Of a stretch of 64,000 nucleotides of DNA, positions 26,875 to 58,897 are shown in pieces. Position 1 is the stretch's first letter, and each line of letters opens with the position of its first letter. The translations under genes and the position numbers were made by a program. Source of the stretch: Thermodesulfovibrionales bacterium (GTDB taxonomy: Bacteria > Nitrospirota > Thermodesulfovibrionia > Thermodesulfovibrionales > UBA9159); the NCBI GenBank assembly GCA_050014695.1, contig JBEKCV010000010.1, positions 8,619-72,618 on the forward strand, read 5' to 3'. Below the pieces are notes generated by a model. It worked only from the letters and a program-made list of their open reading frames with translations. It searched no databases and was not told the origin of the DNA.

Positions 26875-26961
26875 TGGTGCCGAAGGCGGGATTTGAACCC
26901 GCACGGCCTTTCGACCACTAGACCCTGAACCTAGCGCGTCTGCCAGTTCCGCCACTTCGGC
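26875..26961 (-). tRNA. tRNA-Leu (anticodon CAG), class II with long variable arm, CCA encoded
   Basis: The reverse complement GCCGAAGTGGCGGAACTGGCAGACGCGCTAGGTTCAGGGTCTAGTGGTCGAAAGGCCGTGCGGGTTCAAATCCCGCCTTCGGCACCA folds as a cloverleaf with anticodon loop TTCAGGG. It is near-colinear with E. coli tRNA-Leu(CAG) as I recall it. Confidence 0.92.
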
Positions 26962-54938: not shown

Positions 54939-55091
54939 CTATTGCTTCTGAGATGCCGCGGGTTCCGGGCTCTTCTCCTCTTCCTTAAAGATCTCGATGA
55001 TGCTCCCCACTTCTATGCCTGCCTGCTGCAGCGCCTTCTGGAGGTCAACGAGCTTTGCATCCTTCACCTTCACGATATAATTGATATTCAT
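54939..55091 (-). CDS. possible 50-aa protein immediately after frr
   Basis: The ATG lies 1 nt after the frr stop and is preceded by 'ggaggtttagc' (a good SD at 6 nt). No family recognised. Confidence 0.35.
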   Translation of the reverse strand: MNINYIVKVKDAKLVDLQKALQQAGIEVGSIIEIFKEEEKSPEPAASQKQ

Positions 55092-55092
55092 G

Positions 55093-55650
55093 CTAAACCT
55101 CCATGATCTCATTCTCTTTATGGCTGAGCACCTCGTCGACCTTCTCGATGGAGGAGTCGGTGAGTTTCTGTATTTCAGCGTGAAATTTTTTGACATCGTC
55201 CTCGCTTATGTGTTCTTCCTTCTCGAGTTTCTTCAGTTCCTCGTTTGTGTCTCGCCTGATGTTCCTTACCGATACCTTCGCCTCTTCAGCACGCTTTTTT
55301 ACCACCTTGACAAGTTGTTTTCTCCGCTCCTCGGTGAGCGCCGGAATCATGATCCGTATCATCTTCCCGTCATTTGAGGGGGTAAGGCCGAGATCGGATT
55401 TCATGATCGCTTTCTCGATTTCAGGGATGATTCGCGGTTCCCACGGCTGAATTGCTATCTGCCGCGGGTCAGGGATGCTCAGGCTTGCCACCTGTTGAAG
55501 AGGGGTGGGTGTCCCGTAGTAGTCCACCGTTATGCTATCGAGCAGCGCAAGGGAGGCCCTTCCTGTCCGTATCGAAGCGAAGTCCTTCTTGAGCGCTTCG
55601 AGGGTCCCGTCCATTTTTTCAACGGTCTTTCTTCTGAGTTCCTTCTGCAT
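55093..55650 (-). CDS. frr: ribosome recycling factor
   Basis: '[12 protein letters not shown]', '[22 protein letters not shown]', 'IRNIRRD'. Confidence 0.95.
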
Positions 55651-56368
55651 TGTTACCCCCTACTAAGGTGCCTATCCTTTTTCCCTGAACGATTTTCTTG
55701 ATGTTCCCTTTTGCCCTTACGTTAAATACCATGATGGGCAGGTTGTTGTCCATACAGAGGGATATTGCTGTCGAATCCATTACCGACAAGCCTTTCCTAA
55801 GGACATCGATATAGGAAATGAAGCTGTATTTCTTGGCGGTTGGATCCTTCATGGGATCAGAGGTATATACCCCGTCGACCTTTGTTGCCTTGAGTATGAT
55901 TTCGGCCCCGATCTCCATTGCCCTCAAGGCAGCTGCAGTATCGGTGGTGAAGTAAGGGTTCCCTGTCCCCGCAGCGAAGATAACGACGCGGCCTTTTTCG
56001 AGGTGCCTCATTGCCCTGCGCCTGATATAGGGCTCGGCCAGCTCCTGCATCTCTATCGCAGACTGGACTCGCGTATGAACTCCAATCTTCTCGAGGGAGT
56101 TCTGAAGGGCGAGAGCATTGATGACCGTGGCAAGCATTCCCATGTAATCGGCAGACGCTCGTTCCATTCCTTTGACGCTCGCTTCCACGCCTCTGAAAAT
56201 ATTCCCGCCACCAATCACCACTGCAATTTCGACCCCCATGGCAACAATTCCCCTGATTTCAGATGCCATGAAATGAACCGTCGTCGAATCGATCCCATAG
56301 CTCTTTTCGCCCATGAGGGCTTCGCCGCTGAGTTTCAACAGTATCCGTTTATAGGTGAAGCCTTTCAT
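55619..56368 (-). CDS. pyrH: UMP kinase
   Basis: '[13 protein letters not shown]', '[11 protein letters not shown]', '[15 protein letters not shown]', '[17 protein letters not shown]', 'KATKVDGVY'. The start is set at 'MKGFTYKR'; the longer track form has a non-protein-like N-terminus. Confidence 0.95.
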
Positions 56369-56779
56369 CTTAAGTCCTGGCGGCTGAGACCCAGCCCACG
56401 AGGGCGGTGAGAAGCCGCTTGTGTGGGCTGCCCCACTTTCGCCTTCCCGTGGTAACGCACTCGCCTTGTGAGAGAGTGTCTCCACTCGCCACTGTTGTAC
56501 GGCCGCTGTATGTCTCGGTCCGTTTCGCGGTCATCCAGACCGTGTCAGCAGGCAGAGGTTCGAGTGGTCCGAACTGAGGAAGCATTCGGACGTTGGTCTT
56601 AACCTCCCGCACGACGTACTGCCTTGTCGGCCGATGATCCGGCTTATGAGTATGAGGACTCCGTCTGGTCACTCCCGGGCTACGCATCAACTGCTTGCGC
56701 ACCCCGTCCGTCAGGGAGGGGGGGCGGCTCGTGTATAGGAAGTCCTCAGGATAGGAATGAAGATCCCCCGTCCCTGAGA
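56369..56779. other. GC-rich, highly self-complementary non-coding insert between tsf and pyrH (candidate structured RNA or remnant of a mobile element)
   Basis: A 411-nt gap sits inside the otherwise tight rpsB-tsf-pyrH-frr cluster. Nested helices can be read directly: 56392-99/56423-30, 56404-07/56415-18, 56551-60/56601-06 and 56619-23, 56567-73/56585-91, and 56712-23/56765-76. Confidence 0.3.
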
Positions 56780-57379
56780 TTATGACCGCTCTCCCAGCTG
56801 GAACCTGACAAAACGCCTCACGACGATGTTTTCCCCGAGCTTTGCGATCTTCTCGGTCACCAGGTCCTTTATCGTGCGCTTCTGATCGGGGTCCTTAATG
56901 AACACTTGATCGAGGAGACAGGTATCGCCGAAAAATTTCTCCAGCTTGCCTTCCACTATCTTTTCGACAACCTGTGCCGCTTTGCCTGCGACCTGCGCCC
57001 GGTAAATCGCTTTCTCATTTTCAATAACATCGGGGGGAACATCTTCCCTCGCTGTATAGGACGGATTTGCTGCGGCTATGTGCATCGAGATGTCCTTCAC
57101 AAGATTCTTGAAATCATCGGTCCTGGCCACGAAATCGGTCTCACAGTTGACCTCCACAAGAACGCCGATTCTGTCCATGTGTATGTATGAGCCGACAGAG
57201 CCCTCGGACGCGCTTCGCCCTGCCTTTTTCGATGCGGTTGCAAGGCCCTTTTGCCTAAGCACAACTACTGCTTTTTCAGAATCTCCATTGGCTTCGGTGA
57301 GGGCTTTTTTACATTCCATCATGCCTGCACCGGTCTTCTCCCTGAGTTCTTTCACCTTGTCAGCTGAAATAGTTGTCAT
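56780..57379 (-). CDS. tsf: elongation factor Ts (short form)
   Basis: '[25 protein letters not shown]', '[18 protein letters not shown]', 'LLDQVFIKD'. Confidence 0.95.
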
Positions 57380-58200
57380 CCTAAAACCTCCGATGTCTTT
57401 GTCGCAAAGCCTTGTGGAGGCAGTGGCACTGTGCTTTCCGCAGGGGCCTCAGCAGCTTCTTCCTGTCCGATCTTCTCCTGTATCGCCGCCTTTTCCGCTT
57501 CAAGGGAAGCGGCTTTTGCAGCGGTCTCTTTTCCCGTAAGAATGGCTTCAGCCATCTTTGCTGTTATCAACTTTATTGCCCGTATGGCGTCATCATTTCC
57601 GGGTATTACGTAATCCACCTCGTCCGGATCGCAATTGGTATCAACAACAGCAACTATCGGTATGGAGAGCTTTTTTGCCTCCGCAATGGCGATCCTCTCC
57701 TTCTTCGGGTCTACAATAAAAACAGCGCCGGGAATCCCGGGCATATCTTTTATCCCGGTGAGATTCTTTTCCAGCTTCATCCGCTCTTTTTCGAGGCCAG
57801 CAACTTCTTTTTTTGAGAGGGCCTCGTAGGTGCCGTCCTCCTTCATCTTTTCAATACTCTTCAGGCGCTCGATGCTTTTCTTAATGGTAGAAAAGTTGGT
57901 CAGCATTCCTCCGAGCCACCTCTGGTTCACAAAGAAGGCTCCGGCCTTCTGGGATTCCTCCTGGATAGCGTCCTGTGCCTGTTTCTTGGTTCCTACAAAA
58001 AGTATCGAATCACCCTTCAGTGACGTCTTCTTGACGAAGTGGTATGCCTCTTCAAGCCCCCTCAATGTCTTCTGAAGGTCGATGATATAGATACCATTTC
58101 TCTCTCCGAAGATGTACCGTTTCATCTTCGGGTTCCACCTCTTTACCTGATGACCGAAATGAACGCCGGCCTCAAGTAATTCCTTCATTGTTGCTACCAT
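57376..58200 (-). CDS. rpsB: 30S ribosomal protein S2 (with acidic/Ala-rich C-terminal extension)
   Basis: '[22 protein letters not shown]', '[10 protein letters not shown]', '[10 protein letters not shown]', 'VVDTNCDPD'. SD 'aaaggaggacacc' precedes 'MVATMKEL'. Confidence 0.95.
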
Positions 58201-58897
58201 GGTGTCCTCCTTTGGTTGTTCCTCCGCCATTTCTCCCTTCACCCTGGTATAGGGACCGAGAAGGGAAAGCATTACGGCGTGTGTTTTTCAGGGTAAAAGC
58301 TTAGCACAGGGAGAGAGCTTTTTGCAAGACGCTTCCCCCCCGACTCGCCGATCCCCGTGCAAGGGTATGCAGATCGCGGCAATCAGGGGAGATGCGAGGT
58401 GGAAGAACAGTGCCGGAAAGCTCGCCGAGAGAACTCCCGTCGATATTAGTTGCATTTTTTGTGTAAAAACTGATAAATATATAGAATCTTTTGGGGGGCA
58501 GTTGCCTTGTCCGGCTCCCGGAACAGATTTATTGAGAACACGACAGGAACATGCGAGGAAGGTGACAAAGGCTCCATATGATTGTCTTTAGAGGCATCTT
58601 GTGTTGTTTTGAGGTCTCAGCGGTGGCGCTGTTAGCGCGTAAGTCCCTCGAGTCCTATCTCCATCAAAAGAGTGTGAAAAGGTAATAGTGGGAAGGCTTG
58701 GACTCTGCTGTTAAGATACGGCAAGCTGTCTCGTCGGCCTCCGGCGTATATCGGTTCAACAACGGGTTTGCCTTACGCCTCAAAGACGCATCGAGTTCTC
58801 TGAACGACGTCCGGAAAGACCCCTTCAATGCTGTGGAGAATAAGACGGACATATGACTGCGACAATGTTTTTCGGAGCGCTGGCAGGGAGGGTGACG

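Follow-up and report, generated by a model that had tools for sequence, protein, structure and literature searches.

In the 64,000-nucleotide (nt) stretch of contig JBEKCV010000010.1 analyzed here (the window), which comes from a Thermodesulfovibrionales bacterium, the tsf and pyrH genes of the rpsB-tsf-pyrH-frr cluster are separated by exactly 411 nt (56369–56779), and the question is what this insert is and how it came to lie there. A preliminary description, made from the letters of the window alone, had flagged the gap as unusually long, which is borne out by the nearest GTDB genomes, where the tsf-pyrH gap measures about 5–90 nt and the insert is absent. The insert is G+C-rich, at 60.8% rather than the about 65% first estimated, compared with about 50.5% in the flanks (tsf 50.8%, pyrH 50.3%, whole window 50.5%). 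The EF-Ts sequence places the organism in the Thermodesulfovibrionales (Nitrospirota); its best named relatives are Thermodesulfovibrionales and Ca. Sulfobium, and the top GTDB genome by EF-Ts is a Ca. Sulfobium sp. with 79% identity. We assign the insert, with a probability of about 0.9, to the family of HEARO/omega-RNAs and ISC transposons, as a degenerate member that is devoid of IscB. The name HEARO denotes the guide RNA (omega-RNA) of IscB, a nuclease that is carried by transposons and is ancestral to Cas9 (Meers et al.; Goltsman et al.).

The minus strand from 56728 to 56474 aligns to the Rfam family HEARO (RF02033) over the entire model (positions 1–211 of 211) with a score of 38.7 bits. 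The E-value of this match is 2.2e-6 in a local scan of 751 nt and 1.9e-4 window-wide, the latter computed over 128 kb and 4227 Rfam families. At E ≤ 0.05, the whole window contains two Rfam matches only, HEARO on the minus strand and a tRNA, while at the gathering score the tRNA-Leu(CAG) at 26875–26961 (minus) is the single match. The Infernal/Rfam scan had been proposed in the preliminary description, which could place the insert in no RNA family, and its outcome overturns that statement. Cis-regulatory families of Rfam are absent both among the matches that reach the gathering score and among those with E ≤ 0.05 (the weak matches of the local scan have E 0.8–7.5), and CRISPR arrays, cas genes, and matches to CRISPR repeats are likewise missing from the window.

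The conserved blocks of the family, UGACCAG ... UACGU ... AUGCUUCnnCAGU ... AACA..GGCGAG, are present in the insert in this order. A search pattern composed of blocks common to the insert and the consensus (TGACCAG...TACGT...ATGCTTCNNCAGT) matches the window once, at 56573–56671 on the minus strand, with 0 matches expected by chance, and the shared blocks TGACCAG, TACGT, and ATGCTTCnnCAGT retrieve bona fide HEAROs elsewhere. The minus-strand hairpin GUCCGAA-UGCUUCCUCAG-UUCGGAC at 56567–56591 aligns to the model segment ACCcugGgAUGCuucgCcAGUcCcagG, around AUGCUUCnnCAGU, and 51 of the 67 model pairs are canonical in the window copy. The three sets of helices listed in the preliminary description can all be read directly in the sequence, and a repeat finder also recovers 56392–99/56423–30 and 56711–23/56765–77 (the latter 92% complementary). 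One of them, the perfect 7-bp stem 56567–73/56585–91, turns out to be the conserved HEARO hairpin, while the other two lie outside the HEARO consensus fold. The dense long-range pairing that had been read into the insert is no more than chance would give: the z-scores of the minimum free energy against dinucleotide shuffles of the 411 nt are −0.64 (minus) and −0.60 (plus). Since the folding energies are no better than those of shuffles on either strand, dense pairing was dropped as evidence. For the 255-nt HEARO-like part alone the z-score is −0.58, whereas eight genuine HEAROs range from −0.9 to −7.4.

The assignment can be compared with other copies of the family, taken from viral, metagenome, and relative loci (L-numbers below). 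Loci with the motif pattern number 11 among viral sequences and 35 among metagenomes. When 31 pattern-matched loci were rescanned with Rfam, 22 reached the gathering score (89–157 bits) and six more gave 34–75 bits. An intact IscB open reading frame (ORF) lies 3′ of the RNA in seven loci (L090, L096, L097, L102, L105, L131, and L139), with RRXRR and HNH confirmed in two of the seven, and IscB occurs in Nitrospirota. At least 6 of the 27 other rescanned copies are without IscB (L093, L107, L109, L115, L122, and L125). The two omega-RNAs closest to the insert, L105 and L139, are both found upstream of intact IscB genes. The former shares 32 identical nt with the insert, including the core hairpin region (blastn E 2e-10), and scores 75 bits; the latter, from a Nitrospiraceae metagenome-assembled genome (MAG) that was not selected by the motif pattern, shares 69 nt at 72% (blastn E 2.8e-6) and scores 69.9 bits. 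With its 38.7 bits, the window copy is the second-lowest of the 29 copies scored, only L128 (34.3 bits) being lower. Its 5′ terminus reads GCCG, compared with GTCA in 28 of 28 other copies (the 27 rescanned and L139). ISC transposons begin with GTCA, which corresponds to HEARO positions 1–4 (Kapitonov et al. 2016).

It is worth mentioning here that many IscB gene calls, P0121 and P0122 among them, exceed by about 80 codons the ORF that begins at the plausible start (the IscB of L105, for example, is called with 513 instead of 434 amino acids (aa)), which we attribute to calls that run through the omega-RNA. Furthermore, JGI labels IscB as "McrA". In L103 and L106, ORFs of 228 aa located about 30 nt past HEARO correspond to IscB truncated just after the HNH motif, and represent either pseudogenes with a frameshift or a naturally short form.

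The omega-RNA scaffold is co-oriented with tsf and pyrH, all three being on the minus strand, so the strand of relevance is that of the operon, as the preliminary description had considered. IscB elements are known to favor the orientation of the upstream gene, the guide being the 5′-adjacent flank outside the transposon end and being transcribed from outside the element (Meers et al.). The insert is foreign and noncoding, also in agreement with the earlier view. Its sole sizeable ORF (110 aa, 56370–56702, minus), which had been noticed and found unconvincing, has no Pfam match, and a translated probe against 5.8 billion proteins finds no relative except this very locus in a Thermodesulfovibrionales MAG from NCBI, where it carries the annotation "hypothetical protein". 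This entry, ABSA46_05055 (100 aa), is called across the relic and is an annotation artifact over the omega-RNA. IscB itself was sought at the locus in two ways. A tblastn search of the window with five IscBs gave a best E of 0.28 and nothing in the insert, and a hidden Markov model (HMM) of IscB C-termini (120 sequences) found no remnant in the six frames of the insert. pyrH begins 105 nt past the end of the HEARO model, about where IscB normally starts. Because formal membership of the Rfam family failed and the defining IscB neighbor is missing, the insert is filed as a HEARO-like relic and not as a functional omega-RNA.

The distribution among relatives is narrow. All contigs with an identical EF-Ts carry the 411-nt gap. 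A relative with 96% EF-Ts identity (L133/L134, the sister lineage in the following) has a gap of 326 nt, which is the same insert with an 84-nt deletion in the core (window 56699–56616). In relatives with 84–88% EF-Ts identity, the gaps are 37–200 nt long and have no similarity to the insert. The insertion is thus confined to one shallow clade, because it is carried by the lineages at 100% and 96% and is absent from those at 84–88%.

Comparison of the two lineages points to decay. The two insert copies are 78.6% identical, and the fourfold sites of tsf and pyrH are 72–73% identical. The divergence is uniform along the insert, with no segment more conserved than the others, and the last 23 nt, identical at 19 positions (83%), are not above synonymous sites. 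In the sister, 23 of 43 pairs are canonical, the structure having been fitted to the window copy; the sister copy starts with GCCA, and L133 gives no HEARO match at E ≤ 0.01. In strain L002, a single-nucleotide polymorphism (SNP) in the TACGT motif is the sole difference over the 2.6 kb of rpsB-tsf-insert-pyrH. A first test on invariant positions found 10 of 17 kept in the window copy and 16–17 of 17 in most other copies. Instead of the conserved structured RNA that had been favored initially, the evidence points to a decaying relic, the sister having lost 84 core nt and diverged at about the synonymous rate, with only 2 of 18 changed pairs still pairing. That the insert is a non-functional relic is what we regard as distinctly probable.

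At its 3′ side, the insert suggests an ISC terminus. The architecture is that of ISC elements, namely a hairpin, about 20 nt, and then ATGA, and it overlaps the helix 56392–99/56423–30 of the preliminary description. An anchored alignment to four ISC 3′ termini (L093, L122, L125, and L131) scores 20, compared with −18.6 ± 9.5 for shuffles. The insert ends with ...TTAAG/ATGAA (the slash marks the junction), and no flanking direct repeat is visible. The form N/ATGA is the target of several ISC families (Kapitonov et al. 2016), and the transposon-adjacent motif (TAM) of G. stearothermophilus elements is TTCAT (Meers et al.). The weight of the target site is limited, because, given an ATG, only the fourth base is informative. 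The pyrH start codon itself is ancestral, since the element-free relative L141 likewise begins pyrH with ATGAAAAAG (MKKGLTYKR). An apparent CCATACAC/CTATACAC empty-site match was also considered and was rejected, as it is unsupported by alignment to element-free relatives. Real omega-RNAs reach beyond the RF02033 model (Meers et al.), and the segment between the model end and the terminus may be such an extension or an internal remainder. The features of the locus are collected in Table 1.

Table 1. Features of the tsf-pyrH insert and of the flanking genes (window coordinates)
Feature	Positions	Strand	Basis	Remarks
rpsB	57376–58272	minus	ORF	
tsf (EF-Ts, 199 aa)	56780–57379	minus	ORF + Pfam EF_TS	upstream co-oriented host gene
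Host-derived tsf-pyrH spacer, 51 nt	56729–56779	minus		upstream of HEARO model position 1; boundary placed within a few nt
Guide position, 16 nt, GACTTCCTATACACGA	56744–56729	minus		last part of the host spacer
Degenerate HEARO/omega-RNA scaffold	56474–56728	minus	RF02033	transposon end beside the guide
Core segment	56616–56699	minus		TGACCAG, 3′ strand of P1, most of TACGT; deleted in the sister lineage (L133/L134)
HEARO core hairpin	56567–56591	minus		the perfect 7-bp stem of the preliminary description
3′ of the Rfam model	56422–56473	minus		omega-RNA 3′ extension or internal remainder; IscB remnant not detectable
ISC/IS605-like 3′ terminus, 53 nt	56369–56421	minus		GCTTCTCACC, hairpin, GTCTCAGCCGCC, AGGACTTAAG; suggestive
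Terminal small hairpin	56407–56391	minus		CCGCCC-TCGT-GGGCTGG
TTCAT plus (ATGAA minus)	56364–56368			pyrH start codon and two bases; ISC target N/ATGA form, IS605-type TAM
pyrH (UMP kinase, 249 aa)	55619–56368	minus	ORF + Pfam AA_kinase	downstream host gene
frr	55093–55650	minus	ORF	

Similar junctions were seen in other loci. In L096, L105, L107, L115, L122, and L125, host ORFs of 85–360 aa begin at the ATG(A/G) of the 3′ junction. At least 14 of the 27 HEARO copies have a GGAGG/AAGGAG-like motif 3–10 nt before GTCA in the 5′ flank, and 6 of 8 ISC termini carry a Shine-Dalgarno (SD)-like GGAG/GAGG/AGGA 5–7 nt before the junction. ISC elements thus often sit exactly between the SD and the start codon of a host gene, and the SD-like motif of the terminus is possibly a replacement ribosome-binding site (RBS).

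Elements without IscB and of a size comparable to the insert were also encountered. L093:4156–4534, L107 (oriented 569–951), L115:2259–2655, L122 (oriented 1710–2111), and L125:6578–7020 are IscB-less mini-elements (minis) of 379–443 nt, with the layout HEARO omega-RNA, about 100 nt, and the conserved terminus CTTCCTCCCC-hairpin-T.TCCGCGC-.../ATGA. Four of the five score 110–156 bits and keep GTCA, and L125 scores 58.2 bits. The L125 mini retains IscB C-terminal codons (..RNDGYQYG), and therefore such minis can arise by internal deletion. A full element, L131, is 1694 nt long, with an IscB of 446 aa and the same terminus as the minis. On its short metagenome contig there are two HEARO copies about 1.9 kb apart, one at 107–373 (92 bits), which precedes the intact IscB, and one at 2081–2289 (59 bits), which is cut by the contig end.

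Based on these results, it is likely that about 360 nt of the gap (56369–56728, minus) are the remnant of an ISC-type IS200/IS605 transposon without its IscB gene, which is essentially the remnant of a mobile RNA element that the preliminary description had listed as an alternative. What remains of it would be a degenerate HEARO scaffold, a short tail, and an IS605-like terminus abutting ATGA. From the known biology of the family, a Y1 (TnpA) transposase acting in trans may have pasted the single-stranded element beside TTCAT/ATGA. With an orientation that matched the rpsB-tsf transcript, the inserted element would have been read through, giving an RNA with a 5′ guide from the host flank, and in the presence of IscB this guide RNA would cut the emptied site, thereby forcing the element to be copied back. 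The element may have been complete on arrival or a mini from the start.

As a guide RNA, the insert at present probably does nothing, because no IscB is adjacent, the terminal GTCA is lost, the folding is close to that of shuffled sequences, and the drift is approximately neutral. A scan of the insert for sigma-70-like promoters and intrinsic terminators found none. An SD-like AGGA lies inside the insert at 56375–56378, 6 nt upstream of the pyrH ATG, and pyrH would now be translated from this SD. The expression of pyrH-frr should not be harmed, since the insert has no recognizable terminator and supplies the AGGA. The simplest view is that the insert is now a transcribed, tolerated spacer. The homology to HEARO, the restriction to one lineage, the decay in the sister, and the lack of IscB from the window are direct results; the precise ends of the element, its target site, the mechanism by which it came, and its inactivity today are deduced from them and from the biology of the family.

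A number of observations weigh against this assignment and have to be set beside it. The score of 38.7 bits lies far below the Rfam gathering cut-off of 83 bits; the IscB-linked omega-RNAs of L139 and L105 also fall under this cut-off, and only 65% of IscB 5′ untranslated regions (UTRs) match RF02033 (Goltsman et al.). With the IscB neighbor missing, membership of the family is read entirely from similarity of sequence and structure. The blastn check for further copies, which had been proposed at the outset, returns none in the window, and the metagenome pattern scan finds only the same locus (L114); outside the window, the relative with 96% EF-Ts identity has the same insert and those at 84–88% are without it. 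Since there is no second copy in either the window or the metagenome scan, we infer mobility rather than observe it. None of 2000 shuffles reaches the score of the anchored terminus alignment, a comparison that is post hoc, the similarity having been noticed by eye first. A window-wide nhmmer search with a four-sequence profile of ISC 3′ termini gives no match at the insert, for which reason the identity of the terminus is taken as suggestive. The exact empty site was not recovered when the insert was spliced out and the product aligned to L136, L138, L140, and L141; it is not reconstructable, because the intergenic DNA of the element-free relatives is too diverged.

Further points of this kind concern the decay of the window copy. 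Over 40 near-invariant positions, the window copy keeps 32 and the IscB-linked L139 keeps 29, which weakens the argument from lost positions. The reference set is ascertainment-biased, because L139, which lies outside the pattern selection, keeps only 29 of the 40. When the changes are polarized by the HEARO consensus, 2 fall in the window lineage and 9 in the sister (or 5 and 12), with equal branch lengths of the flanking genes in the two lineages. The asymmetry is not significant and is due in part to an alignment bias that favors the window copy. It nevertheless leaves room for the window copy to have stayed functional for longer, under a constraint that lasted until recently or still acts.

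We have also considered explanations other than a relic. One of them is a live stand-alone omega-RNA. In this case the scaffold would be released from the rpsB-tsf-pyrH transcript and taken up by an IscB whose gene lies elsewhere in the genome, and would direct this IscB to cut the tsf-pyrH site once it is emptied, or some other sequence that matches the 16-nt guide. The full-length scaffold with all of the strongest family motifs, an orientation that permits read-through transcription, a count of altered conserved positions that is lower for the window lineage than for its sister, and the presence of IscB in Nitrospirota are consistent with such a role, and the IscB-less HEARO copies that score 137–156 bits elsewhere make solo omega-RNAs a real class. 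Stand-alone, trans-acting omega-RNAs are said to have been reported by Altae-Tran and co-workers in Science in 2021. We consider this role unlikely, in view of the loss of the terminal GUCA, the 16 of 67 model pairs that are non-canonical, a fold no more stable than shuffles, and a score at the bottom of the range of the family but for one copy. Moreover, the population is polymorphic for a SNP in an invariant motif, no IscB lies within the 64 kb, and the divergence is near neutral, whereas about half the neutral rate would be expected with one constrained lineage. Somewhat less likely still is an exapted leader, in which the relic would have been recruited as a structured 5′ UTR with the pyrH RBS, tuning pyrH-frr translation or mRNA processing. 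The position of the AGGA, the similar SD-like motifs that other ISC termini carry 5–7 nt before host start codons, and the retention of the insert in two lineages at about 27% synonymous divergence would agree with this, but no segment of the insert, the last 23 nt included, is conserved above synonymous sites, the sister lineage tolerated the 84-nt deletion, and there is no Rfam cis-regulatory match; the supply of an SD is passive and does not amount to regulation.

Two further explanations remain. That the insert is an unrelated spacer of high G+C content, or else a structured RNA of a new kind, with a HEARO match that arose by chance, might be argued from the score below the curated cut-off, the lack of IscB, and the failure to find another copy. 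We find this very improbable, and it was already disfavored, because a full-length alignment with E 1.9e-4 in so large a search space, motifs in the correct order and spacing that retrieve bona fide HEAROs, and the independent blastn similarity to the IscB-linked omega-RNAs of L105 (2e-10) and L139 (2.8e-6) speak against coincidence, and the orientation, the insertion polymorphism, the foreign G+C content, and the ATGA junction all fit an element. For a novel structured RNA in particular, the fold energy offers no support. A degraded coding gene, be it the 110-aa ORF or a fragment of IscB, could be defended by the 100-aa hypothetical protein annotated in the NCBI MAG, and is effectively refuted by the missing Pfam match, the missing homologue beyond the locus in 5.8 billion proteins, and the empty searches with tblastn and the IscB C-terminal HMM. 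A degenerate, IscB-less member of the HEARO family thus remains the explanation that we adopt.

A bolder extension of this assignment can be formulated. The relic would not be dead, but would either still be excised from the transcript of the ribosomal-protein operon and serve an IscB encoded elsewhere in the genome, in trans, or have become the functional leader of pyrH, and IscB-less minis consisting of an omega-RNA and a terminus may constitute a recurrent mobile class that inserts between host SD and ATG(A) and brings a replacement SD. Taken as a whole this is a long shot; if true, minis would settle harmlessly even before essential genes such as pyrH.

Two observations on the neighboring genes can be added. 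In the frr gene of strain L002, 13 differences are clustered in 67 nt (55495–55561), a pattern suggestive of a short tract of recombination or of a chimeric assembly. Between frr and a gene of the DksA/TraR-type zinc-finger family, a 50-aa ORF (MNINYIVKVKDAKLVDLQKALQQAGIEVG...; 54939–55091, minus) has no Pfam match, and relatives with EF-Ts identities as low as 84% (L136, L137, L138, L140, and L141) have a gene of 47–50 aa called at the post-frr position.

With the present assignment, what had been an unmatched structured RNA becomes an ordinary, eroded guide-RNA element of the IscB/OMEGA type, and "HEARO-like relic" would be the appropriate annotation of the region in place of "hypothetical protein". 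More generally, sub-threshold Rfam matches can explain odd gaps in conserved operons when they are read in context. The two lineages at about 27% synonymous divergence provide a dated example of the decay of an element. The observation on SD/ATGA junctions may be of interest to researchers working on transposons and on genome editing, and needs a proper survey.

Finally, the insert can be compared with the known systems. It shares with HEARO RNAs the alignment over the full model, the UGACCAG, UACGU, AUGCUUCnnCAGU, and AACA..GGCGAG blocks, the core hairpin, and the place behind a transcribed host gene of the same orientation, where flanking DNA of the host occupies the guide position. It differs from them in its score (38.7 compared with 83 bits), in starting with GCCG and not GUCA, in lacking an IscB ORF, in its 16 non-canonical pairs out of 67, in a stability not above that of shuffles, and in its approximately neutral rate. 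Cas9d and IscB ("HEARO") nucleases are compact RNA-guided enzymes with RuvC and HNH domains that have been treated together (Goltsman et al. 2022); one Nitrospirae MAG is known to contain a Cas9d. Unlike a tracrRNA of Cas9d (type II-D), the insert matches the model of the IscB omega-RNA, and neither a CRISPR array nor a cas gene accompanies it in the window. The PATEs, which are protein-less derivatives of IS200/IS605, are defined by their ends and not by a guide RNA (Meers et al.). In common with ISC transposons (Kapitonov, Makarova & Koonin 2016), the insert has its 5′ end at the start of HEARO, a putative subterminal hairpin about 20 nt from ATGA, no visible target-site duplication, and a presence restricted to one lineage, while it departs from them in its length of about 360 nt, the absence of iscB, the mutated terminal GTCA, and its single copy in the searched sequence. 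A transposase was not seen either, no search of the window having been aimed at TnpA. With the IscB-less minis (L093, L107, L115, L122, and L125), it shares the succession of omega-RNA, about 100 nt, terminus, and ATGA. The minis measure 379–443 nt, compared with about 360 nt here, and look intact or recent, whereas the window copy is eroded; in four of the five, as in the present locus, the ATGA is the start codon of a host gene.

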